Assembly: GCA_015069615.1 (NCBI GenBank)
Contig: SVIF01000004.1
Span: 6,270 to 70,269 of the forward strand
Origin: Clostridiales bacterium
GTDB taxonomy: Bacteria > Bacillota > Clostridia > Christensenellales > Borkfalkiaceae
Direction of reading: 5' to 3'
Length of the DNA stretch: 64,000 bases
The notes below the pieces were generated by a model. The model was given only the letters and a program-made list of their open reading frames with translations. It was not told the origin of the DNA and did not search any database. Position numbers and translations under genes: made by a program. Shown in pieces: positions 4,391-31,030 of the stretch (positions are counted from its first letter, which is position 1; each line of letters starts with the position of its first letter).

Positions 4391-4622
4391 AAAAATAAAA
4401 ATAAGAGATAGCCTTGCCTTTTCGGTTTGCCATCTCTTCTTCTACGTCTTATGATGAGTAAAAGGGATAGCTCTCCGCCCGGAAGGCGACAACAACACGG
4501 ATATTTTCCGTATTGCCAGCAAAGCATTTGCCAAATGCTTCACTTCGGCACCCGTCCCTTACATAGCGCGGCTTTGGCAGCCGTTACGCGCTGTGCTAAT
4601 AACAAGGTGCGCCTCTATCATT
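4391..4622 (-). promoter_or_regulatory. Lysine riboswitch (L-box) with intrinsic terminator, leader of dapA-dapB-ddh-lysA
   Basis: The minus-strand RNA carries GAUAGAGGCGC, GGGACGGGUGCCGAAGUG, CUGG, GUCGCCUUCCGGGCGGAGAGCUAUC (L-box core blocks). A 10-bp hairpin AAGAGAUGGC/GCUAUCUCUU and AUUUUUAUUUUU follow, just before the dapA RBS. Confidence 0.75.
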
Positions 4623-4632
4623 CTTTTTTATT

Positions 4633-9738: not shown

Positions 9739-10950
9739 TTAGCCTAAGCCACCCATAATAGCCAGCATGGGCGAATATACGGCAATAAACATTGTACCGA
9801 TTACCCCACCCATAATACACATCATAATGGGTTGAATTTTTGCGGTTAACGAGGTTAGGGTGGTTTCTACTTGTTCGTCAAAGAACTTGCATGAACGCAT
9901 CAAAATATCGTCAAGCGCCGCCGTTTTTTCCCCTACCGCAACCATTTGGATTAAGATGGGGGGGAACAGTTTATACTTTTCAAACGCCATAGCAAGGGGC
10001 ATACCGTGGCGTACGTCCTCTGCCGCGGCGCGGAATTGCTTACGCATATAGCGGTTGCCAAGCACGACTTCAATGGTATCCATTGCGTCCGTAATATCCA
10101 TACCGCTGCTTAAAAGCAAGCCGAAACCACGCGCAAAGCGGGAAGATAATAGCGCCGTTTGTACTTTACCGATTAATGGAAGCTTTAACTTTAAAAAGTC
10201 GTAAAAATACTTCCCTTTTTCAAATCTGCCGATTAAGAAAAATATACCGAATAACGCAAAGGCGAGAAGTATCATAATTCGCCAGTTGGCAAGCATAAAG
10301 TCCGAAAAATCGTACACCACTTTGGTAATTCCCGTGGGAGTAATTTCCAAAGAGCTTAACGATTCACGGAAGGTGGGAATAACCACCGTAAGCATAAGGA
10401 TTACGATACCTATCGTCATAATAAGAAGGGTGATGGGATAAGCAAGCGCGCTTTTTACCTTACGCTTGATTGCCGAATCCGTTTCGTAGTAATCCGCAAG
10501 CGAATTAAACACGATTTCCAGTTTTCCGCTGGCTTCCCCAACGAAAATCATACTGCGGAAGAATTCGGGGAACACTTTTTTGTGCTTATTCAAGGCATCC
10601 GAAAGCATAATCCCCGCTTTTACGTCCTCGTCAATAATGGCAAGCAGTTTTTTGAAGTATCCCGAATACGCTTGGTTTTTTAGGATATCCAAGCACCCCA
10701 AAATGGGAATTCCGGAGTTAATCATAATGGAAAACTGACGGCAAAAGGTGGTAAGTTCCGAACGTTTTACCTTGCCCGTGCCAAGGGTGAAGAAGGAATT
10801 CGGCGTTTCCCCCGTGTAGGGAACGCAATTCACCAAAAACAAGTCCTGCTTAGCAAGTTGTTCGGCTAAATCCTTTTCGTCCTTAGCGATAAACGTACCC
10901 GTAAACTTTTCTTTGGCTAAGTTTACGGCAGTATATTTATACTGTTGCAT
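9739..10950 (-). CDS. pilC: Type IV pilus platform protein (GspF/PilC family)
   Basis: 403 aa. It shows the duplicated GspF domain architecture with three TM segments. Confidence 0.9.
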   Translation of the reverse strand: MQQYKYTAVNLAKEKFTGTFIAKDEKDLAEQLAKQDLFLVNCVPYTGETPNSFFTLGTGKVKRSELTTFCRQFSIMINSGIPILGCLDILKNQAYSGYFKKLLAIIDEDVKAGIMLSDALNKHKKVFPEFFRSMIFVGEASGKLEIVFNSLADYYETDSAIKRKVKSALAYPITLLIMTIGIVILMLTVVIPTFRESLSSLEITPTGITKVVYDFSDFMLANWRIMILLAFALFGIFFLIGRFEKGKYFYDFLKLKLPLIGKVQTALLSSRFARGFGLLLSSGMDITDAMDTIEVVLGNRYMRKQFRAAAEDVRHGMPLAMAFEKYKLFPPILIQMVAVGEKTAALDDILMRSCKFFDEQVETTLTSLTAKIQPIMMCIMGGVIGTMFIAVYSPMLAIMGGLG

Positions 10951-10991
10951 ATAACGCTCCTTTCCCTAACGATTAGGGCGCGTAAAATTTG

Positions 10992-11777
10992 TTAAAAAGT
11001 TAGTAACCCCACGTACCAAGCGATTACTTGGGCGCCCACCGCCAACGAAAGCACGAAGCCCGCGGAAAGGAAGGGCGCGAAGGGGTATTCTTTATCTTGC
11101 TCCTGCTTTTTTGCAAGGCGAACGGCAAGAAGTACCACACTTGCCACAAGCGCTGCCACAAGTAGCATGAACAAGAATTTTTGCCAGCCCAAAAACAAAC
11201 CCGCCGCGGCGGAAAACTTTACGTCCCCACCGCCAAGCGCTTCCTTTTTATAAATGAGCATGGCAAGATAATACACAAGCAAGAACATGCCTGCCGCTAC
11301 CGCCCCGCCAACGAGATGCGACCACCAAACGGTGGCGGGATCAAAGAACATAGCAACAAGCCCCAACCCCGCCAAAATTAACGAGTAGCGATCGGGAATC
11401 ATCATATATTCTAAATCCGTGCAGAACACGCAAAGGGCAACGGAAGAAGCAAGCGCGGCAAGCACCGCGTAAACGGGTTCGGTTTTCCAAAACAGAAGTA
11501 CCGCGCCCACCCACAAAATCCCGTTTGCAAGTTCCACCAGCATATAACGGGGGGATATTTTTTGTTTACAATGTCGGCACTTACCCCCAAGGATCAAAAA
11601 GGAGAGTACGGGGATATTATCGTACCAGCGAATGGGATTTTTGCAATTAGGACAATGTGATGCGGGCTTGGATAGCGAAATGCCGTTAGGGATACGATAC
11701 ACACATACGTTTAAGAAACTACCCACGCAAAGCCCCAAAACCGCCGCCAAAATGATTGCCGTGATATAATAAATCAT
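10992..11777 (-). CDS. pilD: Prepilin peptidase (A24 family)
   Basis: 261 aa, polytopic. It has an N-terminal CPNC...CRHC zinc-like motif and a GGGDVKF aspartyl-protease motif. Confidence 0.9.
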   Translation of the reverse strand: MIYYITAIILAAVLGLCVGSFLNVCVYRIPNGISLSKPASHCPNCKNPIRWYDNIPVLSFLILGGKCRHCKQKISPRYMLVELANGILWVGAVLLFWKTEPVYAVLAALASSVALCVFCTDLEYMMIPDRYSLILAGLGLVAMFFDPATVWWSHLVGGAVAAGMFLLVYYLAMLIYKKEALGGGDVKFSAAAGLFLGWQKFLFMLLVAALVASVVLLAVRLAKKQEQDKEYPFAPFLSAGFVLSLAVGAQVIAWYVGLLTF

Positions 11778-11779
11778 AC

Positions 11780-13087
11780 TTAGAAATTGTTGTTTTTGTT
11801 ATATTGCCCCGCGTATAAACCGCCGAACAGGTCTAAATCCGCAAGCACGGATTCTTGCCCTTCTTTTACGTCCACCGTATGGAAGGGGATGCCGTTTTCT
11901 TCTTTTTCCGCGTTAACCATATCAATTAAATAGTGGTATTCCTTGGGAAGGTTTACGTACACCGTTTCGGGCGCGCCCTGGGCGGTAATCCGTTCGTTAC
12001 GTTGAATTAAATTCAGCGCCCATTTTACGATATAACGGAAGTTTTCGTAGACGAAACCTTCGGGCGATTCGGGAACGGGTCGTTGCATAAATTTGGGAAG
12101 GCGACGGGGTTTCCGCTGCCCTACTTTTACTTTGGGCGCGTTTTGTTCGGCAAGGCGTTCTGCTTCTTGTAAAGCCGCTTCCTGCGCTTCCCCTTCGTAG
12201 TACTCTTCTTCCACAGGGGCGGTAATGGTGGGCGTGCGCAATTCATCCGCAATGCTTTCCTTTTCCGTTTCTTCGGGAAGGCGCGTGTTTTCTAGCTGTT
12301 CCTTAGTCAGTTTTCCGTCCTCCCCTAACTCCCCGCGTTCGTTTAGAAGAATGGTAAGTTGTTTTGCGCGCGCCTTTTCCTTGGCGTTCAGCACTGCAAG
12401 GTGGGCTACGTCGTGCCCAATTAAACGGTCTTCAGGAAGTACTTTCGTGCTATCTAAAATTTCGTAGCCCACTGGAATAGCATACGAACCTGCCGTTCTG
12501 CCTTTTACCGATAGGGCAAAGTTGGTTTCCCCTTCCTTCACGTCCACAAGCAAGAAATTCGCGTTTTTTACGCGCGGATGTAAGGCAAGCATGCCGTTTA
12601 CGATGGCGGAAGAACGATAGGTTACTTCTTCTGCGGGCAGTTTTGCCGCCGCGCACGCCGCTTTAACCGAAGCAAGCAAGTCCTTTTTTACGTAAGTTAC
12701 CGCGTAGGAAGCGTACTGACGGTTTTGCACCACGGGGATGGTGTTAATCATCAGTTCATCGCGATTTTTATACGCGCTAGAAAGCGCAACCGAAAGGGAG
12801 TTTTGCATCAGTTTTTTACGGATGGAAGGCACGCTTATCATATCCGTACCCACCGTATGCGCGGGTAAAAGTACTGCAGTTTTACCGCCCATTGCTTGGG
12901 GGTGATCTTTGGCGTATTCGGTTAAAGCCAAAGTTAGTTGGTTAAAATAGGTTTCGTCAAACCAAGTTTCACTTGCAACGGATTTTTCTTCAATTTCATA
13001 TTCCCCGGCGGTGTTTTTGCCGTAAAAGCGAACTTTGCCTTTTCTGGGAATCAGCACGATTACCGTGGTCATTTCATTTTTTGCCAT
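11780..13087 (-). CDS. Hypothetical pilus-assembly protein, possibly a divergent PilM (actin-like) with a long acidic insert
   Basis: 435 aa. The segment NFLLVDVKEGETNFALSVKGRTAGSYAIPVGYEIL resembles the PilM phosphate-2 region. An E/K/P-rich insert spans about aa 250-330. The gene sits between the pilins and pilD. Confidence 0.35.
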   Translation of the reverse strand: MAKNEMTTVIVLIPRKGKVRFYGKNTAGEYEIEEKSVASETWFDETYFNQLTLALTEYAKDHPQAMGGKTAVLLPAHTVGTDMISVPSIRKKLMQNSLSVALSSAYKNRDELMINTIPVVQNRQYASYAVTYVKKDLLASVKAACAAAKLPAEEVTYRSSAIVNGMLALHPRVKNANFLLVDVKEGETNFALSVKGRTAGSYAIPVGYEILDSTKVLPEDRLIGHDVAHLAVLNAKEKARAKQLTILLNERGELGEDGKLTKEQLENTRLPEETEKESIADELRTPTITAPVEEEYYEGEAQEAALQEAERLAEQNAPKVKVGQRKPRRLPKFMQRPVPESPEGFVYENFRYIVKWALNLIQRNERITAQGAPETVYVNLPKEYHYLIDMVNAEKEENGIPFHTVDVKEGQESVLADLDLFGGLYAGQYNKNNNF

Positions 13088-13107
13088 ATGCCGAATTTCT
13101 CCTTAAC

Positions 13108-13584
13108 CTAAGGGTTAATATCCCACCGCACTATGCGGAAAGTGGGGATTGTTGTTGCTGTTTTATCAATTTGCACTGCTAAATGCGTTTGCCCTTTTTC
13201 GCCGTAAAAAGTGATGGAGTAACTGAAATGTGAATTATTCCCCTCAGCCCCCTGCGTAGCGTAAGTGGTCCCTTTGGGGAAGATTTCGTTAAAAAATACG
13301 TGCATATTGCGAAATTCTTCTTCCGAAAATAGGTCTTCACTACGAATAGCAAGTTCAAACGCTTCTGCCATATACGTTAGGGCAACACGCCTACTTGTGT
13401 ATCCTTCTTCATATTTTCTACTAAGGGAATCCCCCATCGCTGATGAAACGATTAAAATGGAAAGCGCCGTTACGATAAGCAAAGTTACAATGGCTAGTTC
13501 CATTCCGGCACCGCGTTTACCTAAACGGTTGCGGTTTTTACTTCCCTCTTTGCTACTGGGGAAACGAATAAAAGAACGTATCAT
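13108..13584 (-). CDS. Pilin-like protein with a non-canonical N-terminus (ComGG/PilX-like candidate)
   Basis: 158 aa with KRGAG|MELAIVTLLIV, a hydrophobic helix where Glu is at +2 rather than +5. ATGA overlap with the upstream minor pilin gene. Confidence 0.45.
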   Translation of the reverse strand: MIRSFIRFPSSKEGSKNRNRLGKRGAGMELAIVTLLIVTALSILIVSSAMGDSLSRKYEEGYTSRRVALTYMAEAFELAIRSEDLFSEEEFRNMHVFFNEIFPKGTTYATQGAEGNNSHFSYSITFYGEKGQTHLAVQIDKTATTIPTFRIVRWDINP

Positions 13585-14051
13585 GTTTGTTCCCCCTTCA
13601 TAAAACCATCATACGAACAAATCACGTGATTCGTTATATGGTTGTTCTCATCATACGTTAACACACCGCCCCGATACGCCGTTACCGAAAAGGAATCAAT
13701 TTCCCCGTACACTGCGATTGCCAAAATTACGTAAGTATCCTTTTGGTACGCATAGTTGAAACGTATCCCGGTGTGAGTTCTTGTATAATCCGCGTCTATT
13801 GCGTTAAAGGCTTGGGTAAGTTCTGTTTCGGTTTCCGCAAAACGGAAGGCTTCCACCAAGGCGCTGGCGCGAATCTGCGCTTCCCTATCCACAATCCCCT
13901 GTGCTGAAAGGTTGGAAGAAGAAACCAATAAGGACGTAGTTGCAATACTGATTGCCACAATGATAGCAAGCGCAACGGCTGTTTCCGCAAGTGAAAATCC
14001 GCGTTTACGGTTGTTGGCTTTTTGCTTTTCGCTTTTTAGTAAGCGCGCCAT
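13581..14051 (-). CDS. Minor type IV pilin / pseudopilin
   Basis: 156 aa with the class III signal NRKRG|FSLAETAVALAIIV (Gly-1, Glu+5). GGAGG RBS. Confidence 0.75.
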   Translation of the reverse strand: MARLLKSEKQKANNRKRGFSLAETAVALAIIVAISIATTSLLVSSSNLSAQGIVDREAQIRASALVEAFRFAETETELTQAFNAIDADYTRTHTGIRFNYAYQKDTYVILAIAVYGEIDSFSVTAYRGGVLTYDENNHITNHVICSYDGFMKGEQT

Positions 14052-14084
14052 GTTTTCTTCCTCCTTTTTGTTTTTTGGTGTTTT

Positions 14085-14133
14085 TTAGATTCTCCGCTAT
14101 GCCCGTCAATGCGGGTAGGCGAAGAATGACAAG
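14085..14133 (-). repeat. Intergenic hairpin repeat element, copy 1
   Basis: ttagattctccgctatgcccgtcaatgcgggtaggcgaagaatgacaag. In minus-strand RNA it forms a 9-bp outer stem AUUCUUCGC/GCGGAGAAU (one G.U) and a 4-bp inner stem CCCG/CGGG. Confidence 0.8.
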
Positions 14134-14153
14134 CCGTTTCGTCCTATCCTAAA

Positions 14154-14170
14154 GCGGGTAGGCGAAGAAT
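14154..14170 (-). repeat. Partial copy (right arm) of the hairpin repeat element
   Basis: gcgggtaggcgaagaat is identical to the right arm of copy 1. Confidence 0.6.
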
Positions 14171-14193
14171 AATAGGTTTTCCCTTTGGTTCGG

Positions 14194-14685
14194 TTAAGGC
14201 GTTTTGATTTGTTTTGGATAAAACGCGTACGTAACGGCTTGCGGTGTAGGATTCACTTTTACCTGCGGAGGCAAGTACGTTGCCTTGCAAAGTAGTAACG
14301 CTTTTCCGTTTGTGCCCGCTTTTAATTGAAAGGTTACGGATTGCAACTCCTTTACATTAAGCCGCGTTTCCCCTTGGGGGCTAACGGCAATTAAAGTTTG
14401 ATCACTAACGGTTAAAGTGTACGTTTCACCTGCGGATGTTACGGTTACCATGTTCGCATTTACCGCAATCGTACGATTGTTTTCTTCGCAATCAAACAGG
14501 AAATTAGAAACCGTACGTTCCACCCCCGAAAGTCGCTCTGTAATAGCCGCACGCTTACGGTTTAGGGCGTGATAATTATTTATTAAAATACAAAAGGAGG
14601 TAACCATAGTGCTTACGATGGCAAGCATTGCAAGAACAACCACAAGTTCCGCAAGCGTTACGCCCTTTTTGCCAAGCTTGTTCAT
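14194..14685 (-). CDS. Minor type IV pilin / pseudopilin
   Basis: 163 aa with the class III signal GKKG|VTLAELVVVLAMLAIV. Confidence 0.75.
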   Translation of the reverse strand: MNKLGKKGVTLAELVVVLAMLAIVSTMVTSFCILINNYHALNRKRAAITERLSGVERTVSNFLFDCEENNRTIAVNANMVTVTSAGETYTLTVSDQTLIAVSPQGETRLNVKELQSVTFQLKAGTNGKALLLCKATYLPPQVKVNPTPQAVTYAFYPKQIKTP

Positions 14686-14814: not shown

Positions 14815-15004
14815 TAGCGCGCAGTTTATAACGCACCGTGATTTTTATAAGGCGGTGTAGTTACAAGCAAGACGCGGCAAACGCGGATTTTGGAAAGGCG
14901 CATACTTAGCGTATGTAACTGCACCAAAAACGCAAGTTTAACAAAGTATTGCGTAGTAAATACGACGCCGCACGTATGCGCGTGCGCGCGCATAAAAAAA
15001 TTAG

Positions 15005-15037
15005 GGCACTTTGCGCCCAATACGGGTGCAAAGTGCC
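15005..15037 (-). terminator. Terminator immediately downstream of pilA
   Basis: 10-bp stem ggcactttgc / gcaaagtgcc, followed on the minus strand by AAUUUUUUU. Confidence 0.6.
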
Positions 15038-15063
15038 TCTCTTTAATTATTTAATAATTAAAA

Positions 15064-15501
15064 TTATGCAGCAGCGGGAACGATGATTGCAACGTTAGCC
15101 GCGATAGAAGCTTGCTTATAGGTGGGCGTAACTGCGGGTTCGCCAAGATTTAAGCCTGCCAACGTAGCACCACTCTTGGTGTAAACGGTTGCAGTTGCAG
15201 CAACAGCGGTCTTATTCGATTTTGCATTTGCAGTTTCGGTGAATACGCCGTCAATCAATTTGTATTCATAGTAATCATCCCCCTTGGAATATACGATAAC
15301 CATATCGTCCCATTGAGATTGATCTACAATAGCAAGCATTTCGGTAGACGAGTTTTTAGCAGCTTGATCTGCATTAGATTTGTTTGCTTTGTTGATGATG
15401 CTGGAGAACGTGGGAATCAGTACTGCGGAAAGAATTGCGATAACCGCGATTACGATTACAAGTTCAACGATCGTAAAGCCTTTTTTGTTTAACTTTTTCA
15501 T
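15064..15501 (-). CDS. pilA: Major type IV pilin
   Basis: 145 aa from MKKLNKKG|FTIVELVIVIAVIAILSAVLIP. AAGGAG RBS lies 10 nt upstream of ATG 15501. The gene has its own promoter and terminator. Confidence 0.85.
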   Translation of the reverse strand: MKKLNKKGFTIVELVIVIAVIAILSAVLIPTFSSIINKANKSNADQAAKNSSTEMLAIVDQSQWDDMVIVYSKGDDYYEYKLIDGVFTETANAKSNKTAVAATATVYTKSGATLAGLNLGEPAVTPTYKQASIAANVAIIVPAAA

Positions 15502-15819: not shown

Positions 15820-15845
15820 AGCCCCCCTTACAATCAAGGGGGGCT
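15820..15845 (-). terminator. Terminator downstream of the giant pilin gene
   Basis: Stem agcccccctt / aaggggggct, followed on the minus strand by UGUUUUAUUU. Confidence 0.6.
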
Positions 15846-15886: not shown

Positions 15887-18800
15887 TTATCGGGGGGTAA
15901 TGGATAAATCGTCCAAATAGAGTTCGTCAAAGCAAATGCCGTAAGCCAAAATCATAAAGTAGTGGTATCCGCTTTCCCTGGGGGTGAAGGTACCCGTAAC
16001 CAGTTTCCAATTACAAGCTACCGACATTGCGCTTGCATCCACCAAGCGTGTACGATTGCTTGCGTCAGAGCCTACGTCCGTACTATTTCGCAGTTCTATC
16101 CAACCCCAACCGCCATCAAACCACGTGGGATTTACGATTTTTATCATAAAAGATATTTCATACCGCACGCCCGCTTGTAAATAAACTTGCGTACCGATAT
16201 AGGTGTTTCCGCCGTTGATAGACCTATCTGCGGGGTTGATCATCTTTAGCGAACCCGAACCGTCGTTCGTATAAGATACGCTTGTTTTACGGGTGTGTGC
16301 GGCAGCCGTCCAACCACCCCAGCCGGGCGTGGTTTCAAAATAACTATATTCCACGGGAACGATAGCACCATCCTGCCCTACGCTTGTTGCAAAATTGCCG
16401 TTTTCAATTAGGTTTATATCTTGCGCTTCACCGATGGCACGTAAGTTAATATCGTCAATATAAATCGCCGAATTTGCGGTGGTAAAGCCGTTCCACATAA
16501 TACCCAAATAGTAGGGTTCGGTTTTATCCGCGTCAAAAGTAAAGGTAACTTTTATCCAACCGCCCGTGTTCCACAGCGCCCCCGCATTATTTACGTCCGT
16601 TACCGCGGAAGTTCCGTTTTGTTTGGTATACCCTGCGGGATTTAACAAGCGGAAGGTACAGTAGTTTGCATGCGAATAAGCAAAAGAACTCGTGGTTCCT
16701 TTTACGTCCGAAGTGGTGTTATCCGACCAGTTGCCATCGTGTACGGCCTGCGCAATGTTCCATTTCCCTATCTTAATCTTTGCGTTTTGGGCATTTGCAA
16801 CGGTAGTATTTTCTACGTTTTCCGCCCATAGCATAAAGGAAAGTTCGTACCGCAGACCGCCCGTAACGTTGAACAGTTTTTTCACGTTGCCTTTATAATC
16901 GCCCGCAGTGCTAGAGTATCCTTCGTTCATTTGAATTTTCAAACTACCCGTTCCCGCACCTTTATCGTACGATTTTTCGGTTACGTAACCCACGTTGGTT
17001 GCCCAGTTCCAACCGCCAATCCAACCATCTTGCTCCATAGCACTACCCTGTAAGTAGGTATTGCTATTTCCGTAATCAAAATTGCCGTTGGTAAAGATAT
17101 TTTCCCCTAAATTTTTGAAGACTTCTAATTCATCCAGCCAAATGGTGCTACCCGCCTGGTTGCCGTTGAACTTGAACACGAAATACATTTCTTGCGTATA
17201 TTCTACGCTAAAGGAAATGGTGGCGGTTTGCCATTCGGTAATGGTTTTGGGATCCCCACCGTTGTTAAAGGATTTGATTACGATACCGCAGGTTTCAAAG
17301 TTTTCCGTCCACGTCGGGGTACGATTATCCCCTACTTCCATGCGGTCCTTATACACAAGACCAATGAAAGAATCCCCAGCGACGGTCTTCAAATTCTTAT
17401 ACTTATATCTTACGGATAGGGTGTAATTGCCGGGATCTAAAACAAACCCGTAGCGCATATTCCCCGGGTAGCCTTTGGAAGTAAACATTAAGCTTTGGCT
17501 ATCCGTTTCGCCCGGGATTGCGTTTTCTTCCGAATAGGAAACTTGATTGCGGAAGCGCCAGCCTTCAAAATCCTTCCAGCCCTTATGCACGTTATGCGAA
17601 ACGCTATTGTTATCTTCTTCCTGTACGTAGGACTTGTTAAAGGTTTCGTCAACGGTAAATTTACCAATCACCCCTACTTGGTTTTCGTTGGGGGATAAGG
17701 GGCGCACAGCAATATCGTCTATCCAAAGCGAACCCTTTCTTAAACCGTAGACCATAAATAAAATAACGAAATTGCGCGCTTCTTCGCCATCCGTAAAGTA
17801 TACGTTTTGCTTATACGTTTTCCATGCGGTAGTCGTATCAAGTAGCCCGGTAGAACGCCAAGTATATTCACCACCCGAAGTCCACCCGTTGGGCTTGTTT
17901 TTCTTATCTATTACGTAGAAATACGCGTTTGCATTATTATTAAGGATATAATCTTCACTGGTTTTATACGAAAATTTCACTTCGTATTCCACGTAGGGGC
18001 GTAAAGTGATTTCCGTATACATATATTTGTTGTATGAAGAACTATCCGCTTTTTCGGTGAAGGTAAACTTCATAGAACCCGAACCATCCTCCGTGTGCGT
18101 GGTGGACGCGTCAAACGAAGCGTTTTCCATCATATTCCAGTCAGTAGGCGCCGTCCAACTGGCGGTGGGAGTGCTATCCGGGATGTTTCCTTCGGGGAAT
18201 ATATTATAATCTATTGCATCCTTTGCGCCTTCCGCAGGGCGGTGATAGTTGCAGAAATTGCAGTACATATCGTAAGCGCCCGTAAAGCAATGCTCTTGCG
18301 AGGAGCGTAAAGATAGGTTGCTAATCGTAATTTCCGAATCATCCACCGACCAAGCGATGATGGAAACGAAATATTTGCCGTCCTCCGGGCAAACCCAGGT
18401 AGCGTTGATTTGGCGCGTTACGCCAGAAATGGTAGTATTAGGGCCGTAAAGCACGAAGTTGCTGGAAGCGGGCAGGACGGGATAATCTATGGAATTCGTT
18501 CCGTCCTCTTTTACCATTACCGCGAAATAGTTTCCGCCCACGCCGTCAATTTCCATATGATCAATTTGCACGGTTGCCATAAAAGTATATTCTACCCCGG
18601 CAATCAGTTCTACTTCGTACTGGCGGTGTTCTTCGTGTTTATCGCCGATTGCATACTCGCCCGAAATCGTAATATTTTTTTCGGCGGGGTTAAACACGAT
18701 GGTGTCCTCGTTATTCGACCAACCGGTCCAGTTTTCTTGGTTGTAGGGATCAATTAACAGTTCCCCGCAAAGTTTGGGCGAATAGTTATCAGGCGTAAAT

Positions 18801-20785
18801 ACCACGTACGAATCCGCAACGTAATATTCGTCCCCAACGTTTAAAACGTTGCCCTTGTTATCCTTCCACGTATTTTGGCGGTAATTTGCTTTTTCCACCG
18901 TGTAATTTACGTTAATCGTATCCCCCACGCGAACGTTTCTATCGCGGAACATTTCATTACCGAACTCATCCAAGAACACTACGGTTGCGGGCATTCCCGC
19001 CTTTCTCACCTTAACTTTTTTCGTTACACTGTAAGAGCGTTCCCCAAAGGCAAACGTGGTGGTAATATCTACGTCCCGTTCGGTGTTAAATTCTAATGCA
19101 TTATATCCCACACCGTTTACACGATAAGAAATGCGGCTGTTTAAAACGGGGTCTATCGCTTCATATCGGCCAAGCCATTCGCCCGTTCTTTCGTCTTGAT
19201 ACATCAAACACATGTCTGGAACGGAAAAGCGGGAGGTATGCGCGTGCGTGAAGAACCTTTGCGCCTTTTCGTTTTCCACCGTTTGTACGGTGGGATAGCA
19301 GTTGAATTCGTCAAACGCCAATACGTCCGCTTGCATACCGTATAAGTGGAAATACAAATAGTACGAAACGGGGTTATGCGTGTTTTCATTTCCCGAAGTG
19401 TTAGGCACGGTAAAAGTGCAGCTAGCCTTGGCCCATTCCTTATCCGCAACCGTGTGGTGGAACATGCCCTCCCCTTCGGGCGGATTTTGGAAATCGTAAA
19501 CGGCAAGGGGCACACGGGTATTGATTTCCCCTGCCAAATCTTCACCCCTTAATAAAAGCATATGCACGTCCGAAGTGGAAGGCTTGTGCATCCCTTGGAA
19601 CATATACATAAAGCTTAAATCGTAAGTAAAGCCTTCAAACAGTACGATACGCGTGACAAGTTGCGTATTGATATTTTTCTCGGGCGAACGGAACACCAAT
19701 GCAGAGGTACCATCCCCCGTGTAGTAGTTATATTGCGCGTCCGCCGCGTTGCAGGAAGTAAACGTTTTCGCATCCCAACCGAACCAACTACCCAAGCGGT
19801 TGCTTACGACGGGATTTGTACCAAACACAGCGTTGGAAATTACGTAATCGGGATACGTGTTCGCGTAAGGCACGGGGGTAAGCGTGTGGGCGAAATCCCC
19901 GTTACGGAAGGCGTTTTCAAAATATAATTCTTGCTCGTAACCGTGAACTTCGCAATCCCTATGGCGAAGCCCGTAGGTGCTATCTGCTACGTCTTCAATA
20001 TCCGGCGCAAGGTAGGGATCGCTATCTGGCACCCATGTCCCGCCGTGCAGTTTTTCCCATTCTATGGTACCCACGGTGCCGTATTCGTAATATCCTTCAA
20101 TTAAAAGTTGGCGGATATACATATATTCGGCATGGTCGTAGTGCGAAAGGGTTCCGTTAGGAAGGGTTACTTCTACCCTATCCCACTCCCCACGCACTTC
20201 CACGTTTGCTTCCCCTTCGTTTTCAATAAACAGGGTGCCGGTGTAAGGGGTTGCGCCTGCGTCTATGGAAATTAACGCGGTTAAGTGCAAATCTTGCGCG
20301 CGGTCTGCTTCCGAAACCTTGCTAGATAGGTACACACTGGCTTTCATGCTGTTAACGTTAGATACCGAATGGCATAAACGCCAAATGTTCCTATTGACTG
20401 CATTGTTATCGTATATCGTATCACCATGCCCTTTATATATCAATTCCCCATCTTCTAATAAGGAAAAACGATTATATAAGGCATCATAAATAATTTCTCC
20501 GTTTTTAATTTGGGAGTTAATTTCTTCAAAATTTCTACCGTCAGCAGCCAAAACATCAATTGCTTCCCCTAAAGAAGTTGCTGGACCGTTAAATTCATCC
20601 GAAGCAATTACGGTATTTAACGTTTCCACCGTGGCAATATCCTGATTCATATTCGCTTTCCCAATGATGTTTACGAATACGGGAATAGCAATTGCTATTA
20701 ACACTGCCATAACGGCGATAACCACCACAAGCTCCACCAACGTGAAGCCTTTTTTCTTTTTATACGTCATCGGTTTATGCGTCAT
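15887..20785 (-). CDS. Giant modular type IV pilin: prepilin N-terminus fused to about six CBM-like beta-sandwich modules
   Basis: Start MTHKPMTYKKKKG|FTLVELVVVIAVMAVLIAIAIPVF, with an AAGGGGG RBS 6 nt upstream of ATG 20785. It is followed by about 1,590 aa containing repeated modules that end in the motifs AFDEF, WIDDI, WLDEL, YIDDI and YLDDL. Confidence 0.8.
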   Translation of the reverse strand: MTHKPMTYKKKKGFTLVELVVVIAVMAVLIAIAIPVFVNIIGKANMNQDIATVETLNTVIASDEFNGPATSLGEAIDVLAADGRNFEEINSQIKNGEIIYDALYNRFSLLEDGELIYKGHGDTIYDNNAVNRNIWRLCHSVSNVNSMKASVYLSSKVSEADRAQDLHLTALISIDAGATPYTGTLFIENEGEANVEVRGEWDRVEVTLPNGTLSHYDHAEYMYIRQLLIEGYYEYGTVGTIEWEKLHGGTWVPDSDPYLAPDIEDVADSTYGLRHRDCEVHGYEQELYFENAFRNGDFAHTLTPVPYANTYPDYVISNAVFGTNPVVSNRLGSWFGWDAKTFTSCNAADAQYNYYTGDGTSALVFRSPEKNINTQLVTRIVLFEGFTYDLSFMYMFQGMHKPSTSDVHMLLLRGEDLAGEINTRVPLAVYDFQNPPEGEGMFHHTVADKEWAKASCTFTVPNTSGNENTHNPVSYYLYFHLYGMQADVLAFDEFNCYPTVQTVENEKAQRFFTHAHTSRFSVPDMCLMYQDERTGEWLGRYEAIDPVLNSRISYRVNGVGYNALEFNTERDVDITTTFAFGERSYSVTKKVKVRKAGMPATVVFLDEFGNEMFRDRNVRVGDTINVNYTVEKANYRQNTWKDNKGNVLNVGDEYYVADSYVVFTPDNYSPKLCGELLIDPYNQENWTGWSNNEDTIVFNPAEKNITISGEYAIGDKHEEHRQYEVELIAGVEYTFMATVQIDHMEIDGVGGNYFAVMVKEDGTNSIDYPVLPASSNFVLYGPNTTISGVTRQINATWVCPEDGKYFVSIIAWSVDDSEITISNLSLRSSQEHCFTGAYDMYCNFCNYHRPAEGAKDAIDYNIFPEGNIPDSTPTASWTAPTDWNMMENASFDASTTHTEDGSGSMKFTFTEKADSSSYNKYMYTEITLRPYVEYEVKFSYKTSEDYILNNNANAYFYVIDKKNKPNGWTSGGEYTWRSTGLLDTTTAWKTYKQNVYFTDGEEARNFVILFMVYGLRKGSLWIDDIAVRPLSPNENQVGVIGKFTVDETFNKSYVQEEDNNSVSHNVHKGWKDFEGWRFRNQVSYSEENAIPGETDSQSLMFTSKGYPGNMRYGFVLDPGNYTLSVRYKYKNLKTVAGDSFIGLVYKDRMEVGDNRTPTWTENFETCGIVIKSFNNGGDPKTITEWQTATISFSVEYTQEMYFVFKFNGNQAGSTIWLDELEVFKNLGENIFTNGNFDYGNSNTYLQGSAMEQDGWIGGWNWATNVGYVTEKSYDKGAGTGSLKIQMNEGYSSTAGDYKGNVKKLFNVTGGLRYELSFMLWAENVENTTVANAQNAKIKIGKWNIAQAVHDGNWSDNTTSDVKGTTSSFAYSHANYCTFRLLNPAGYTKQNGTSAVTDVNNAGALWNTGGWIKVTFTFDADKTEPYYLGIMWNGFTTANSAIYIDDINLRAIGEAQDINLIENGNFATSVGQDGAIVPVEYSYFETTPGWGGWTAAAHTRKTSVSYTNDGSGSLKMINPADRSINGGNTYIGTQVYLQAGVRYEISFMIKIVNPTWFDGGWGWIELRNSTDVGSDASNRTRLVDASAMSVACNWKLVTGTFTPRESGYHYFMILAYGICFDELYLDDLSITPR

Positions 20786-20875
20786 CGGTTTCCCCCTTTC
20801 AGGCTGATTTTCAGCCAAAAAAGTGCGATTGGTTTATATCTTTCACACGCATAATGCGCACAAAGATACAAGTTT

Positions 20876-20904
20876 ATTGTAACACCTTTCTTATTTTATG
20901 TCAA
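20876..20904 (-). promoter_or_regulatory. SigmaA-type promoter of the giant pilin gene
   Basis: Minus strand TTGACA-17 nt-TACAAT, about 90 nt upstream of the start codon. Confidence 0.5.
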
Positions 20905-20942: not shown

Positions 20943-21040
20943 AAAATAAGAAAAGGCGCGTTATTTTTTTGCCAAAAGCAAAAAAACAAGCCTTTCGATA
21001 ATACGAAAGACTTGCCTTGGGTAGCACCTTCAGGGACTCG
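20943..21040 (-). repeat. Direct repeat copy 1: terminator/flank plus a degenerate 3' fragment of tRNA-Lys(CTT)
   Basis: 74 nt are identical to 21142-21215. Then tgggtagcaccttcagggactcg aligns with tggtgcaccttcagggactcg of the intact tRNA. Identity ends inside the T-loop. Confidence 0.85.
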
Positions 21041-21141: not shown

Positions 21142-21238
21142 AAAATAAGAAAAGGCGCGTTATTTTTTTGCCAAAAGCAAAAAAACAAGCCTTTCGATAA
21201 TACGAAAGACTTGCCGTTGGTGCACCTTCAGGGACTCG
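21142..21238 (-). repeat. Direct repeat copy 2: the tRNA array terminator plus the last 21 nt of intact tRNA-Lys(CTT)
   Basis: See copy 1. It contains the hairpin AAGCCTTTCG ataata CGAAAGACTT plus a T-run on the minus strand. Confidence 0.85.
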
Positions 21239-21293
21239 AACCCGGGACCCACTGATTAAGAGTCAGTTGCTCTACCAACTGAGCTAAAGGTGC
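21218..21293 (-). tRNA. tRNA-Lys (anticodon CTT), CCA encoded
   Basis: Cloverleaf by hand: acceptor GCACCTT/AAGGTGC, D stem GCTC/GAGC, anticodon stem ACTGA/TCAGT, loop CTCTTAA, T-loop TTCGAGT. There is one C.U mismatch in the T-stem. Confidence 0.85.
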
Positions 21294-21300
21294 AAAATTA

Positions 21301-21376
21301 TGGTGATTCATCCGAGATTCGAACTCGGGACACCGTGATTAAAAGTCACGTGCTCTGCCAACTGAGCTAATGAACC
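21301..21376 (-). tRNA. tRNA-Lys (anticodon TTT), CCA encoded
   Basis: Acceptor GGTTCAT/ATGAATC, anticodon loop CTTTTAA, T-arm CCGAG TTCGAAT CTCGG. Confidence 0.9.
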
Positions 21377-21381
21377 ACACA

Positions 21382-21456
21382 TGGCTGGGGTAGCTGGATT
21401 CGAACCAACGAATGCCAGAATCAAAATCTGGTGCCTTACCGCTTGGCGATACCCCA
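21382..21456 (-). tRNA. tRNA-Gln (anticodon TTG), CCA encoded
   Basis: Nearly colinear with E. coli tRNA-Gln (TGGGGTATCGCCAAGCGGTAAGGCA...). Anticodon loop TTTTGAT. Confidence 0.9.
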
Positions 21457-21478
21457 ATGAGTAAAAATATGAAATTAA

Positions 21479-21557
21479 TGGGGCGAGTTAAGGGAATCGA
21501 ACCCTTGACCTCCAGAGCCACAATCTGGCGCTCTAATCCAACTGAGCTAAACCCGCC
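21479..21557 (-). tRNA. tRNA-His (anticodon GTG) with encoded G-1, CCA encoded
   Basis: An extra 5' G lies opposite discriminator C. Anticodon stem CCAGA/TCTGG, loop TTGTGGC. Confidence 0.85.
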
Positions 21558-21564
21558 ATATGTT

Positions 21565-21641
21565 TGGCGTGCCTGAAGGGATTCGAACCCCTGACCCACA
21601 GCTTAGAAGGCTGTTGCTCTATCCTACTGAGCTACAGGCAC
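21565..21641 (-). tRNA. tRNA-Arg (anticodon TCT), CCA encoded
   Basis: Acceptor GTGCCTG/CAGGCAC, anticodon stem ACAGC/GCTGT, loop CTTCTAA. Confidence 0.9.
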
Positions 21642-21664
21642 ACGTCCGCGCCGCAAGTACGTTT

Positions 21665-21738
<74 letters not shown>

Positions 21739-21808: not shown

Positions 21809-22282
21809 TTAAAATATTTCCACGATTTGTGCAGTTATTTTTCCTTGATGCAAAACCAAGTAGCAATACGAAGGTTTTGTGGTGAATTTCGTCATGCTTC
21901 CAGGGTTAATTAAAGTAACGCCGTCTATTTTTTCCACACGGGCGTCATGCGTGTGGCCGTAAAGCGCTAAGGTGCAGTTTTCTTCCTTTGCACGCGCAAG
22001 AAGTTCGTGTAGCCCCCGCTTTACGCCGTAGCGGTGGCCGTGGCAAAACATCAGTTTCACCCCTTCCACTTCCATAAAGCCTTCCCTTTCCCCCGAAGAA
22101 AAGAAATCGCAATTCCCTTCCGCCAGGCGGAACTTTTCCTTATTACCCAGCGCATAGCGGGCTAAATCGCGGAGACCATCCCCCAAAAAGATGACGTAAT
22201 CCGCTTCCGCCATAATGGGCGCAAGTTTTTCCACCGCGGCTACGTTGCCGTGGGTATCCGAAAGAAGAACGAAGGTTTTCAT
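21809..22282 (-). CDS. YfcE/MJ0936-family metallophosphoesterase
   Basis: 157 aa with the motifs LSDTHGN, FLGD, GNCD, HGH and GHTH. ATGA overlap with rdgB. Confidence 0.8.
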   Translation of the reverse strand: MKTFVLLSDTHGNVAAVEKLAPIMAEADYVIFLGDGLRDLARYALGNKEKFRLAEGNCDFFSSGEREGFMEVEGVKLMFCHGHRYGVKRGLHELLARAKEENCTLALYGHTHDARVEKIDGVTLINPGSMTKFTTKPSYCYLVLHQGKITAQIVEIF

Positions 22283-22875
22283 AATTGCACCTTTTGTTTT
22301 AAGTTTGTTAGCGCGCGGAATCGGTGGCTAACCGCATTTTTTTCTTCCGCTGTGGCAAGGGCAAAACTTTTGCCTAAATCGTAACTGTAAAAAATGGGGT
22401 CGTAGCCGAATCCGTTTTCCCCCTCGGGGGCGAACAAAATTTCCCCTTCGGTTTGTCCAAGCGCCGTAACCGTTTCTCCGCTTGGGTAGCAAAGGGCAAC
22501 CACCGTGCAAAAACGGGCGGTGCGGTCTTTTTTTTCTACGCTTACAAGGTCTAACAGCAGTTTTTGATTGTTTGCTTTATCGTTGCCGTGCTTTCCGCTA
22601 TACCGCGCGCTAAACACCCCCGGGGCGCCGTTAAGCGCGTCCACCATAAGTCCGCTATCATCTGCTAATGCGGGTAAGTTCAAGGCCTTTGCCACCGTAC
22701 TTGCCTTTAGAATTGCGTTTTCTTCAAAGGTGTTCCCCGTTTCTTCTACGTCCGCGGTAAAGCCTGCCTCTTTCATAGATACAATTTGGTATTCGGTTAA
22801 AATTTCCGCAATTTCAGTAAGTTTATGCGCGTTGGCGCTAGCCACTACCAGTGCTGGCTTGTTTTTAGTTATCAT
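22279..22875 (-). CDS. rdgB: Non-canonical purine NTP (dITP/XTP) pyrophosphatase, RdgB/HAM1 family
   Basis: Starts MITKNKPALVVASANAHKLTEI. Contains ADDSGL, GAPGVFSARY, FGYDPIF and SHR. An AAGGAAG RBS precedes ATG 22875. Confidence 0.85.
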   Translation of the reverse strand: MITKNKPALVVASANAHKLTEIAEILTEYQIVSMKEAGFTADVEETGNTFEENAILKASTVAKALNLPALADDSGLMVDALNGAPGVFSARYSGKHGNDKANNQKLLLDLVSVEKKDRTARFCTVVALCYPSGETVTALGQTEGEILFAPEGENGFGYDPIFYSYDLGKSFALATAEEKNAVSHRFRALTNLKQKVQL

Positions 22876-22933: not shown

Positions 22934-23761
22934 TTATTCAACGTGTTTGGGTTTTCTTTCACTTTCCTTGGGCGGCGTCATATAATCCCCGTAATTAATG
23001 GTTAACACTTCGTCATAACCGATAGGGCAAGGAAATTCTTTATCCCTAATTTTTTTGTAAACTACGCCGTCAAAACACTTCTTGGGAAAACGAAGAGACA
23101 TTGCACCCACAGAGTAGTTTGCCATGTAAATATAATCGGTATTATCTTTTGCAAACTTTGTGCTTAACTTTTCTTTCTTGGCAAATATTTTTTTCAAGGA
23201 CTTAAATTTCCCCATAAACGAAAGAATTCTAATTTTCCAACGATCAGTAAACGAATGTGCACGCAAACGTTTATTTGCGCGGTAATTCATAGCCATACCG
23301 TATAGCATTTTCTGTTTAAAAACCGTTCTTTTAAATTTGGATAAACTATTAGGGGCATCGTCCATAATAAAAATATCAATATCCAAACGATTTTGATAAT
23401 TGTTTTGGGCTTTATCCTCCTCTTTCTCTTCACGCATAGGTTTATCCACATCTATAATTCTTATAGTAAAGTCGTAAAAATACGGACTAAAATCCCATGG
23501 CAAAATAAGCTTATACGGACTAGGAAGTTTGTCCCGTAGTTGTATCAGTTTATTCAACTGATCCCTTTTCATAATAACGTCAATATCGTCATCCCACGGA
23601 ATAAAATCCCCATGGCGAACTGCGCCTAAAAGCGTTCCAGAATCTATAAAATACTGGATATCATTTTCCTTACAAAACGTGTCAAAATCAATTAGGATCT
23701 TATAAAGAGCGTCATGAACTTCTTTCAAGTCTTTTTTGGTTTCCAACATAATTGTTCCCAT
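22934..23761 (-). CDS. licD: LicD-family phosphotransferase (cholinephosphotransferase-like)
   Basis: 275 aa with DSGTLLGAVRHGDFIPWDDDIDV, the LicD nucleotidyltransferase-fold signature. The gene is visibly more AT-rich than its neighbours. Confidence 0.8.
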   Translation of the reverse strand: MGTIMLETKKDLKEVHDALYKILIDFDTFCKENDIQYFIDSGTLLGAVRHGDFIPWDDDIDVIMKRDQLNKLIQLRDKLPSPYKLILPWDFSPYFYDFTIRIIDVDKPMREEKEEDKAQNNYQNRLDIDIFIMDDAPNSLSKFKRTVFKQKMLYGMAMNYRANKRLRAHSFTDRWKIRILSFMGKFKSLKKIFAKKEKLSTKFAKDNTDYIYMANYSVGAMSLRFPKKCFDGVVYKKIRDKEFPCPIGYDEVLTINYGDYMTPPKESERKPKHVE

Positions 23762-25583: not shown

Positions 25584-28500
25584 TTACAGTTTATACCAGT
25601 AATAATTGTTATACGTACTCTTAAAATACGTTGCGTTGGTGATGGGGGTGGTTACGCTTGTTTTCGTGCCACCCGTTTTATTATTGCAGTTGTAAGAACT
25701 TGTTGTTCGGTACCACGTGCTGGTATCGCTAAACGTAATTTTAGTTAAGGAATTGCAAGAATTGAACGCATCAGAACCTATGCTGGTTACGCTATCGGGT
25801 ATCACGATTTCCGTTAAGGAATCGCAAGAAGAGAACGCATCAGAACCTATGCTGGTTACGCTATTCGGTATCACGATTTCCGTTAAGGAATCGCAATTAT
25901 TGAACGCAGAAGAACCTATGCGGGTTACCGTATACGTTGTTCCGTTATACGTTACGCTTGCAGGGATAGTAATGTTGCCTGCAATGTTTCGGGATTGTTC
26001 TACCACCGTTGCAATGCCATCCTTTAACGCATAGCGGATGCCGTTTTGCTCGGTGTAAATATTGCCGTTCGTTGCTACGTCATTATTCTTGCAGTTCCAA
26101 ACCACGGGGCGGTTAGAAGGGTTCCAATCACTATTCCACCCGATAGGCTGACTTGCCGCTTCGCAGTAGATGGTTAAGGAACTGCAAGAAACGAACGCAT
26201 AATAACCTATGCTGGTTACGCTATTTGGTATCACAATTTCCGTTAAGGAAGAGCAATATTCGAACGCTCTATAACCTATGCTGGTTACGCTATTCGGTAT
26301 CACAATTTCCGTTAAGGAAGAGCAAGAAGAGAACGCTTCATCACCTATGCTGGTTACCCCCTTTGGTATCACAATTTCCGTTAAGGAAGTGCAATTATAG
26401 AACGCATAATAACCTATGCTGGTTACGCTATTCGGTATCACGATTTCCGTTAAGGAAGTGCAATATCTGAACGCAGAAGAACCTATGCTGGTTACGCTAT
26501 TCGGTATCACAATTTCCGTTAAGGAAGTGCAATTATAGAACGCACCTCCACCTATGCTGGTTACCGCATACGTGGTGCCTTTGTAGGTTACGCTTGCTGG
26601 GATAGTAATGCTGCCGGCAATATTTGAGGAAGATTGATGCACCACTGTTGCGGTGCCATCCTTAATTCCATACATAATGCCGTTTTGCTTTACGTATTGA
26701 TATCCCCAAACCTCGTTGGAGTGAGTATAGTTCCACTCACTATCCCACCCATTGGGCTGGCTTTCCGCTTCGCAGTAAATGGTTAAGGAATAGCAAGCAA
26801 AGAACGCCCATTCACCTATGCTGGTTACGCCCTCTGGTATCACGATTTCCGTTAAGGAATCGCAATAATAGAACGCATAATTACCTATGCTGGTTAACTG
26901 GCTGTTATCGCCAAACGTTACCGTGGTTAAGGAATCGCATTCATCGAACGCAGAAGAACCTATGCTGGTTACGCTATCCGGTATCACGATTTCCGTTAAG
27001 GAATCGCAAGAAGAGAACGCAGAATTACCTATGCTGGTTACGCTATCCGGTATCACGATTTCCGTTAAGGAATCGCAAGAAGAGAACGCAGAATTACCTA
27101 TGCTGGTTACGCTATTCGGTATCACGATTTCCGTTAAGGAATCGCAATAATAGAACGCATAATTACCTATGCTGGTTAACTGGCTGTTATCGCCAAACGT
27201 TACCGTGGTTAAGGAATCGCAATCACGGAACGCATAATCACCTATGCTGGTTACGCTATTCGGTATCACGATTTCCGTTAAGGAATCGCAAGAATCGAAC
27301 GCCCAATCACCTATGCTGGTTACACTTGCGGGTATCACGATTTCCGTTAAGGAATCGCAATCATAGAACGCATCATAACCTATGCTGGTTACGGGGTAGT
27401 TCATATATTTACCAGGGATAGTAACCGTAGTGCTACTGCCCGTGTAATCGGTTACGGAATACTCGCTTCCATTTTTTGTAAATTTTAATCCTGTGGTATA
27501 CGGTTCCTGCCATACGGCGTACAGGGTATAGGTGCTACTGGTGCCCATGGTGTAGGTGGCGCGGTTTTTATACTCCACACTGCCGCTTGCACTGGTTGCC
27601 CAACCTACAAAAGTATATCCCGTTTTGGTAAAGGCGTTGGTGGTTAAGGTGGCGGTGGCGCCCGTTTGTATTTGCATATTTTGCATACTGCCGGACGTAG
27701 CGCCGTTGCCGTCAAACTTTAAGGTGTTGGTATTTACCTGCCATACGGCATACAGGGTATATTCCGCATCCGTACTCATGGTGTAGTTAGCACCGTTGGT
27801 GTATTCCACATTGCCGCTTGCCGTGGTGGACCAGCCCTTAAATGTGTAGCCTGCTTTTACAAAGGTATTGGTGGTTAAGGTGGCGGTGGCGTTCGTTTTA
27901 ATTTGCATGTCCGCCATTTCCCCCGAAGTGGCGCCGTTGCCTTCAAATTTTAAGGTGTTTGTGTTTGCCTGCCATACGGCATATAGTGTAACTTCATTTA
28001 ACCCCATGGTGTAGGTGGCGCCGTTTGCATACGCAACGTTGCCACTGGCACTGGTTGCCCAACCCATAAAGGTATAGCCGGCTTTTGCAAAAGTGTTAGC
28101 GGTAAGGGTAACGCTTCTACCTGCGTGGATTTGCATATCCTGCATAGTGCCCAAAGTTGCACCATTGCCATTGAAATGTAAGGTGTTTAACGCCCCTTCC
28201 CACACGGCATACAGGGTATATTCGCTATCCGTACCCATGGTGTAGGTGGCACGGTTTGCATATTCTTCTACACCCGTAGGGGTGGTTGCCCAGCCCATAA
28301 AGGTGTAGCCTGTGCGGCTGAACGCGTTGGCGGTAAGGGTGGCGGTGGCATCGGTGTTAATTTTCATGCTTGCCATAGTGCCGGACGTAGCGCCGTTGCC
28401 GTCAAACTTTAAGGTGTTGGTGTTGGCTTGCCATACGGCATACAGGGTATACTCGCTATTCGTACCCATGGTGTAGGTGGCACCGTTTGCGTATGCCACA

Positions 28501-30983: not shown

Positions 30984-31030
30984 AGTTTTCTCCTTTCCCA
31001 TTTGGGAAACAAAGTTCTAAAAATAAAAAA

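Follow-up and report, generated by a model that had tools for sequence, protein, structure and literature searches.

Known modular pilins and the giant pilin

Modular pilins have been defined as proteins in which a pilin module is joined to at least one extra domain that has no special tie to pilus biology and is also found in non-pilin proteins (Raynaud et al. 2021, PMC8179133). They are widespread, with more than 1200 proteins and 264 architectures recorded (PMC8179133), and are the current explanation for the functional variety of simple type IV pili; those studied are about 50 kDa in size and carry one or two modules. Here, a 64,000-nucleotide stretch of the metagenome-assembled genome of a gut Clostridiales bacterium (contig SVIF01000004.1, positions 6,270 to 70,269; hereafter the window) was analysed with respect to a gene located at the head of a pilus locus. 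Its product, referred to as the giant pilin, is predicted to contain a pilin module followed by a payload of eight extra domains, six of which resemble carbohydrate-binding modules (CBMs). The giant pilin follows the known modular-pilin design for adhesins, in a form that is extreme and yet still recognisable.

In PilC of Streptococcus sanguinis, as in the giant pilin, grafted beta-sandwich modules follow a class III signal and pilin moiety; PilC is part of a monoderm type IV pilus (PMC9934059). Glycan binding by PilC was demonstrated experimentally, and the protein was modelled at the pilus tip (PMC9934059). PilC has two extra modules (Ig-like and ConA-like lectin) and is of ordinary size, whereas the giant pilin, as predicted from its sequence, has eight extra domains and a mass of 182 kDa. 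The lectin fold is ConA-like in PilC and CBM4/22-like in the giant pilin, and the pilin module of the latter is long (about 240 residues) and of a different, rare family. The PilB protein of the same species also combines a carrier pilin with an effector module of a kind that occurs outside pilins, and is processed by PilD (PMC8179133). PilB, however, carries a single vWA module, binds host proteins and is 50.5 kDa, in contrast to the repeated CBM-like modules of the giant pilin. An earlier note on this DNA had stated that PilB and PilC each carry one grafted module; this holds for the vWA module of PilB but not for PilC, and multi-module pilins had already been catalogued. CofB of enterotoxigenic Escherichia coli (ETEC) and similar type IVb minor pilins likewise bear extra C-terminal beta domains on a linker and are predicted tip initiators (PMC8179133), but CofB is without CBM-like repeats.

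Pilins with a CBM were catalogued in the same survey, in which the combination of a pilin with a CenC-like CBM (IPR012902-IPR003305) was listed for 7 proteins, together with multi-repeat pilins and pilins with Listeria-Bacteroides repeats (IPR013378) (Dataset S1 of PMC8179133). These CBM pilins share with the giant pilin an N-terminal prepilin motif and a CenC/CBM4_9-type domain (PMC8179133), but have one recognisable CBM each as opposed to six CBM-like modules. The most extreme modular pilin of the survey was a protein of 860 residues with 12 short repeats (PMC8179133). Measured against that maximum and against the single CenC-like CBM of the 7 catalogued proteins, the description of the giant pilin as an extreme case was borne out. 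Modular pilins, the joining of a pilin to a CenC-like CBM and a characterised glycan-binding modular pilin are thus already known. New are the scale (eight extra domains and 182 kDa), the hexavalent CBM-like array, the rare family of the pilin module, and the position of all the extra domains below Pfam thresholds. Because none of these domains passes a Pfam threshold, the giant pilin would be missed by domain-based surveys. The database entry is annotated only as a 'prepilin-type N-terminal cleavage/methylation domain-containing protein' of a Clostridiales metagenome-assembled genome (MBE7090580.1). The closest genomes to the window are metagenome-assembled genomes of Christensenellaceae, for which the protein is a concrete candidate adhesin or fibre-capture device.

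Pilin module and grafted payload

The predicted N-terminus, MTHKPMTYKKKKG/FTLVELVVVIAVMAVLIAIAIP (the slash marks the predicted cleavage site), contains Gly(-1), Phe(+1), Glu(+5) and Pro(+22), and passed the cut-offs of both PF07963 (N_methyl; 33.1 bits against 21.2) and TIGR02532 (27.4 against 16.3). The class III prepilin signal, which the earlier note had called textbook, was found as quoted there. The N-terminal sequence matched the alpha1 helices of solved pilins, and the alpha1 helix was 69% identical over 35 residues to that of the adjacent 145-residue PilA, in agreement with the parallel drawn previously between the two helices of this locus. The orthologue encoded in L006 lacks the first ATG and begins MYKKKKG, and the leader would accordingly be 13 residues long, or 8 if translation begins at Met6, with no effect on the mature protein. 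Only one hydrophobic segment (residues 11-46) was predicted in the whole protein, and neither another membrane anchor nor a C-terminal sorting motif was found in the full protein sequence. The protein is judged to be a genuine prepilin, because the motif scored above the Pfam cut-off and predicted PilD, PilC, PilB and PilA proteins are encoded in the same locus.

A profile of residues 45-285, from which the helix had been removed, found stand-alone pilins of 293-296 residues (E 1e-44 to 1e-30). The same pilin-module family includes pilins of 900 and 976 residues with unrelated C-termini (P0005 and P0006), and the likeness of the giant pilin to P0005, P0006 and P0007 stopped at residues 245-256. 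Since stand-alone pilins and pilins with other payloads share the sequence up to this point, residues 1-250 are read as a complete, unusually long pilin module that carries different payloads. No match was obtained for the globular part of the module in Pfam, and scanning of metagenomes with the pilin-module profile brought up no contig beyond the one already known. The genome L003 encodes three or more large pilins that are paralogues (900, 531 and at least 534 residues), with nearly identical pilin modules of this family and differing C-termini; their genes, at 10001-12703, 12970-14565 and 21905-22703, are all located away from any pilus operon.

The payload (residues about 246-1632) consists of the six modules, a domain designated X and a segment like a Listeria-Bacteroides repeat. 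The six modules were recovered independently by an iterated hidden Markov model (HMM), with boundaries (Table 1) that agreed with those first proposed; the residue numbers given at that time had been counted from a TTG codon and were 11 too high. Self-BLAST of the giant protein gave no internal matches, and shuffle-calibrated Smith-Waterman alignment (pairwise z up to 14), hhalign (probability up to 96%) and the iterated HMM were needed for the kinship of the modules to be recognised. Five of the modules contain N-x-x-x-N-G-x-F, W-x-G-W, D-G-x-G-S-L and a closing hydrophobic-D-D/E strand, and the closing strands had been quoted correctly. The motif GSGS(L/M)K, previously ascribed to most modules, was exact in modules 3 and 6 only, with GTGSLK in module 5 and looser versions in modules 1, 2 and 4. 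The cysteine cluster that follows module 2 had been counted as four cysteines; it comprises three, flanked by histidines instead (HCx8Cx2Cx2H).

The divergent module 2 was reached from a seed that contained no module 2: counterparts in two relatives described below, P0015 (3.7e-7) and P0016 (4.4e-6), were found at iteration 0, and module 2 itself was found at iteration 1 (independent E-value 1.4e-13). The assignment of residues 599-674 to a Listeria-Bacteroides-like repeat, made from the sequence in the earlier note, was not matched directly in Pfam even at E <= 10, and is a weak one, made by a transitive link: the iterated profile of this segment found P0016 1015-1086, which is itself a match to Flg_new (PF09479; E 3.8e-11). 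The same profile found the Flg_new repeats of another gene in the window, 25584-31001 (E 9e-4). Domain X, which gave no match in Pfam, is probably a beta domain.

A profile built from 19 modules matched several CBMs in the PDB over nearly the full module length, namely 1gui (CBM4 of laminarinase 16A; 6e-5), 2w5f (CBM22 of xylanase 10B; 7.5e-5), 3jxs (CBM4-2; 1e-4) and 4d0q (CBM70; 1.7e-4). A word-indexed search with this profile gave no matches, and a profile of module-2-type modules alone found nothing significant in the PDB. An AlphaFold model of module 6, predicted with 22 paralogous and orthologous modules, had a predicted local distance difference test score (pLDDT) of 71 and a predicted template-modelling score (pTM) of 0.74, and residues 42-177 were well modelled. 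In Foldseek this model retrieved CBM70, CBM4, CBM16, a porphyran-binding CBM, CBM22, CBM4-2 and CBM61 at E-values from 2e-6 to 1e-3, including 4d0q (2e-6), 1gui (1.5e-5), 2zey (2.2e-5) and 2w5f (8e-5). The module profile and the module 6 model are two independent routes that converge on the same PDB entries. The prediction that module 6 folds as a CBM jelly roll is thus well supported, and homology extends it to the other modules. The CBM4, CBM22 and CBM16 domains of glycoside hydrolases (1gui, 2w5f, 3jxs and 2zey) have in common with the modules the jelly roll, N-x-x-x-N-G-x-F and the hydrophobic-D-D strand, and are also used in tandem (CBM22, 4xup, a match from a low-confidence model). They differ in that they are attached to a catalytic domain, not to a pilin, and their identity to the modules is 14-21%, below the Pfam cut-off.

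When residues 289-1455 were searched with HMMER against 1.84 billion representative proteins, the only matches were the giant pilin itself and two non-orthologous relatives. The first, P0015 (1571 residues), has an ordinary membrane anchor; directly after it, residues 95-713 align collinearly with 246-833 of the giant pilin, in the order junction, module 1, domain X, repeat and module 2, and four more module-2-type modules follow. The second, P0016 (2018 residues), to which residues 246-833 were also similar, has a lipoprotein-like signal, a Pro/Thr linker, about six modules and Flg_new repeats, and its gene adjoins genes for SASA-type carbohydrate esterases. One cassette thus appears, by sequence comparison, on three kinds of anchor: a pilin, a membrane anchor and a lipoprotein-like signal. 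With this distribution the giant pilin qualifies as a modular pilin in the published sense (PMC8179133), the pilin module being residues 14 to about 250 and the payload being common to the non-pilin proteins P0015 and P0016. In P0015 (L009 1197-5912), and in the product of a 207-residue open reading frame (ORF) upstream of its gene (L009 476-1099), a membrane segment is followed by (F/V)AKY(Y)T; SipW/TasA-type signals were considered for both proteins and received no support from NCBIfam.

Orthologues were compared among four independent assemblies: the window (P0001), L006 (P0002), L001 and L002 (P0003), and L005 (P0004). All four have the same full-length architecture and the same junction, at 78-84% identity. 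The ratio of nonsynonymous to synonymous substitutions (dN/dS) was 0.15-0.25 for the gene as a whole and did not reach 0.5 in any part, junction and modules included, and the gene is read from these values as functional and under purifying selection. A chimeric join is conceivable in a metagenome-assembled genome, and the protein could then be a misassembled fusion of a pilin with a surface protein, or a decaying pseudogene. Such an artefact is effectively refuted by the recurrence of the architecture and junction in all four assemblies, by the low dN/dS across junction and modules, and by the presence of zero internal stops in 1632 codons. The synonymous divergence between orthologues varied by module, from 0.15 in module 6 to saturation in module 3, and module 3 of P0003 shared no more than about 39% identity with its counterpart in the window (dN 0.57 and dS saturated against L001). 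This mosaic of dS values, with the low identity of module 3, suggests module-wise recombination or replacement. The sharing of a cassette between pilin and non-pilin anchors, with dS changing module by module, makes the giant pilin a clear natural case of module grafting and exchange.

Proposed mechanism and its rivals

On a judgement slightly better than even, we favour the view that the giant pilin is a minor type IV pilin of the modular kind, which displays a multivalent array of CBM-like modules by a mechanism of four steps. The mechanism is drawn from the features observed here and from the precedent of PilB and PilC of S. sanguinis, which are processed by PilD; PilC binds glycans, and a complex at the tip has been modelled. 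The precursor would be inserted in the membrane by its sole hydrophobic segment, with the C-terminal residues, about 1600 in number, outside the cell. The PilD encoded in the locus would cleave the Lys-rich leader after Gly13. PilB and PilC would then assemble the 240-residue pilin module into the PilA filament, which it would enter most likely as the first-assembled, tip-located subunit, because an appendage of 150 kDa could not pack into the shaft. Finally, the payload would hang off the pilus like a string of beads and serve as a multivalent binder of polysaccharide, either from dietary fibre or from a glycan of host or microbial origin. The cleavage by PilD, the polymerisation into a filament, the tip position and the carbohydrate ligand are all inferred.

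Several observations, given in this paragraph and the next, weigh against the modular-pilin proposal. With regard to the filament, the profile of residues 45-285 found no solved pilin in the PDB beyond the helix, and no retraction ATPase (PilT) was found among the ORFs of the window that were examined. By its predicted promoter and terminator the giant gene is a transcription unit of its own, and its co-expression with the pilus machinery can be presumed at most; polymerisation of a 182 kDa subunit, or its passage through the cell wall, is likewise presumed. The main rival to incorporation into the filament is surface display without polymerisation, in which the only role of the class III signal and the alpha1 helix would be to provide a PilD-processed membrane anchor or a short pseudopilus-like stub, with the CBM array at the cell surface. 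Transcription apart from pilA and the machinery genes agrees with this alternative, as does the very large size, which makes a pilus-assembly route and passage through the wall less obvious. The cassette is, moreover, mounted on a membrane anchor in P0015 and on a lipoprotein-like signal in P0016, where surface anchoring suffices. A comparable arrangement is the archaeal bindosome (the Bas system of Sulfolobus), whose sugar-binding proteins have pilin-type signals. Surface display is nevertheless considered somewhat unlikely: the N-terminal 240 residues form a full pilin module common to stand-alone pilins, which is more than a signal-anchor; Glu(+5), Pro(+22) and the likeness of the helix to that of PilA reflect selection for packing within the core of a filament; and the gene keeps its place at the head of the pilus operon in L001.

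With regard to the ligand, the CBM_4_9 gathering score of PF02018 (25.9 bits) was reached by no module. Module 6 scored 23.0 bits (E 1.1e-4) and module 1 scored 18.7 bits (E 2.4e-3), modules 2-4 had no Pfam match at all, module 5 scored 23.7 bits against DUF642 (cut-off 27), and the full-length protein gave no CBM match in Pfam. The CBM4_9/CBM22-type jelly rolls named in the earlier note are upheld by the profile and Foldseek matches to CBM4 and CBM22, but not by the Pfam family. The first 41 residues of the module 6 model were poorly modelled, and its template-modelling scores to CBMs were modest (0.42-0.65). Modules 2-6, modelled with four orthologues, had a pLDDT of 43, a low confidence that leaves module 6 as the only usable model; in Foldseek the five-module model gave reelin repeats, Cry protoxins and tandem CBM22, which are weak hints only. 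The Foldseek list for module 6 also included, at similar scores, the non-lectin jelly rolls of meprin (MAM/TRAF), Cry toxin and phage fibres. Because protein-binding and toxin domains also have the fold, carbohydrate binding by the modules can be proposed from the model but not read from it, and the protein might instead be a pilus-displayed adhesin with a non-carbohydrate ligand (a protein, another cell or a phage decoy target), or its modules might serve mainly as a spacer. The shared fold and the sub-threshold CBM_4_9 scores both agree with a ligand of another kind. We regard this as quite improbable, given that the best profile and structure matches were bona fide CBMs (CBM4, CBM22, CBM16, CBM61, CBM70 and porphyran-binding), that the gene for P0016 adjoins carbohydrate esterases of SASA type, and that genes for a GH32, a rhamnosidase and a SASA esterase are present in the window itself.

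A conserved pilin of 182 kDa with eight extra domains tests the limit that the machinery of a monoderm sets on subunit size. A broader reading, which we think unlikely, is that Christensenellaceae-like Clostridia mount a plug-and-play glycan-binding cassette on interchangeable anchors, with the pilus used for nutrient capture. The pilus would then be a long-reach, possibly retractable 'fishing line' that catches polysaccharide fibres with six CBMs or, alternatively, a bacterial counterpart of the archaeal bindosome, given over to nutrient capture instead of classical host adhesion. On that reading the pilus machinery would also have to be able to export and polymerise a subunit of 182 kDa.

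Gene, control signals and pilus locus

The features of the gene and of the pilus locus are collected in Table 1. The minus-strand ORF, counted from the first TTG, is uninterrupted from 20818 to 15887. The ATG at 20785 is the likely translation start, because GAAAGGGGG ends six bases before it. The upstream in-frame TTG (20818) was rejected as a start in view of the ribosome-binding site that stands before the ATG. A start corresponding to the 22-residue extension annotated on P0003 was also rejected, the upstream ATG being out of frame in the window. A T run at about 20817-20822 has one base more in the window than in L001, which accounts for the extension annotated on P0003. The predicted product is 183.6 kDa before and 182.1 kDa after removal of the leader, with an isoelectric point of 4.7.

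The promoter and terminator earlier proposed for the giant gene were confirmed. The -35 and -10 hexamers of the promoter are identical in L001, L002 and L006; this conservation, like the low dN/dS, speaks for a real and expressed gene. Promoter, 5' leader and ribosome-binding site together were nearly 100% identical to L001 and L002, whereas dS in the adjoining coding sequence was 0.74, a near-invariance that hints at a conserved regulatory leader.

Table 1. Predicted features of the giant pilin gene and of the downstream pilus locus, numbered from the first nucleotide of the window; residue numbers (aa) are counted from the ATG at 20785.
Feature	Coordinates	Strand	Description
Sigma-70-type promoter-like site	20876..20904	minus	TTGACA, 17 nt, TACAAT, TG extension; 11/12 matches
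5' leader	20786..20875	minus	ribosome-binding site GAAAGGGGG at 20792-20800
Giant modular prepilin gene	15887..20785	minus	1632 aa + stop codon; identical to NCBI MBE7090580.1
Class III leader peptide	20747..20785	minus	MTHKPMTYKKKKG; ends in Gly(-1)
Pilin module	20036..20746	minus	aa 14 to about 250; alpha1 helix (F1, E5, P22) + globular part
Junction, payload start	19922..20035	minus	aa 251-288, HGGTW...RDCEVHGYEQELY; aligns with P0015 95-139, directly after the P0015 anchor
Module 1	19277..19921	minus	aa 289-503; CBM4_9-like jelly roll; related to module 6
Domain X	18992..19270	minus	aa 506-598 (93 residues); matched in P0015 350-453
Listeria-Bacteroides-repeat-like segment	18764..18991	minus	aa 599-674 (76 residues); weak assignment
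Module 2	18287..18763	minus	aa 675-833; divergent subtype, closes with ITISNLSL
HCx8Cx2Cx2H motif	18242..18292	minus	aa 832-848 (H832-C833-x8-C842-x2-C845-x2-H848); invariant in four orthologues
Module 3	17684..18211	minus	aa 859-1034; CBM-like; variable module
Module 4	17108..17683	minus	aa 1035-1226; CBM-like; hhalign 91% to module 3
Module 5	16421..17107	minus	aa 1227-1455; CBM-like, long insertion; DUF642 E 4.4e-5, below cut-off
Module 6	15890..16420	minus	aa 1456-1632; CBM4/CBM22-like jelly roll; modelled module
Intrinsic-terminator-like hairpin and T run	15820..15845	minus	11 base pairs; follows giant gene
pilA, candidate major pilin	15064..15501	minus	145 aa; promoter-like site 15638-15610; terminator-like hairpin 15004-15038
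Three small pilin-like genes	13108..14685	minus	14194-14685 and 13581-14051 with G/xxxxE motifs; 13108-13584 non-canonical
435-aa protein, no family assigned	11780..13087	minus	in pilus operon; conserved in L001; searches gave no match
pilD	10992-11777	minus	peptidase A24 (A24_N_bact + Peptidase_A24)
pilC	9739-10950	minus	T2SSF
pilB	8028-9716	minus	T2SSE + MshEN N-terminal domain

Downstream of the giant gene and on the same strand lie pilA, the minor pilin genes, the gene for the 435-residue protein, and then pilD, pilC and pilB, the last three at a distance of 4-12 kb. That the giant gene heads a pilus locus, as had been stated earlier, was confirmed by the gene for P0003, which is syntenic in L001 (a contig of 73 kb) with the operon order kept. 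PilB is full-length (562 residues), its best match was a type IV-A PilB, and its MshEN domain was recognised at E 1.1e-14. A Com pilus or a type II secretion pseudopilus was judged less likely as the parent system on these three features of PilB. The MshEN type of domain binds cyclic di-GMP in other systems. After pilB, two tandem paralogous genes for proteins of about 345 residues (5611-7676, minus strand) have counterparts at the corresponding position in L001, and one of them has a weak PHP-domain match.

On the other side, six tRNA genes (Gly, Arg, His, Gln, Lys and Lys; 21218-21738, minus strand) stand just upstream of the giant gene, followed by housekeeping genes. The promoter of the tRNA cluster (21790-21762) agrees with the consensus at 12/12 positions. 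An 80-nucleotide segment containing the terminator hairpin of this cluster is duplicated (20943-21022 and 21142-21221), the two copies being 199 nucleotides apart and 98% identical. Further upstream, the gene at 25584-31001 (minus strand) encodes a surface protein of 1805 residues that contains about 12 Listeria-Bacteroides repeats together with leucine-rich repeats of the BspA type; this gene and a LicD-like gene (22934-23761) are missing from the otherwise syntenic L001. A protein of 2260 residues with Pro/Thr repeats and a SASA carbohydrate-esterase domain is encoded at 39973-46755 (minus strand), and its gene adjoins that of a GH78-type alpha-L-rhamnosidase (47116-50211, plus strand). Giant proteins with Pro/Thr repeats and SASA domains, very like that of the window, flank P0016 in another genome (L008 1-7991). 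A lysine riboswitch (RF00168, 88 bits) was identified at 4460-4625 (minus strand), upstream of an operon at 360-4527.

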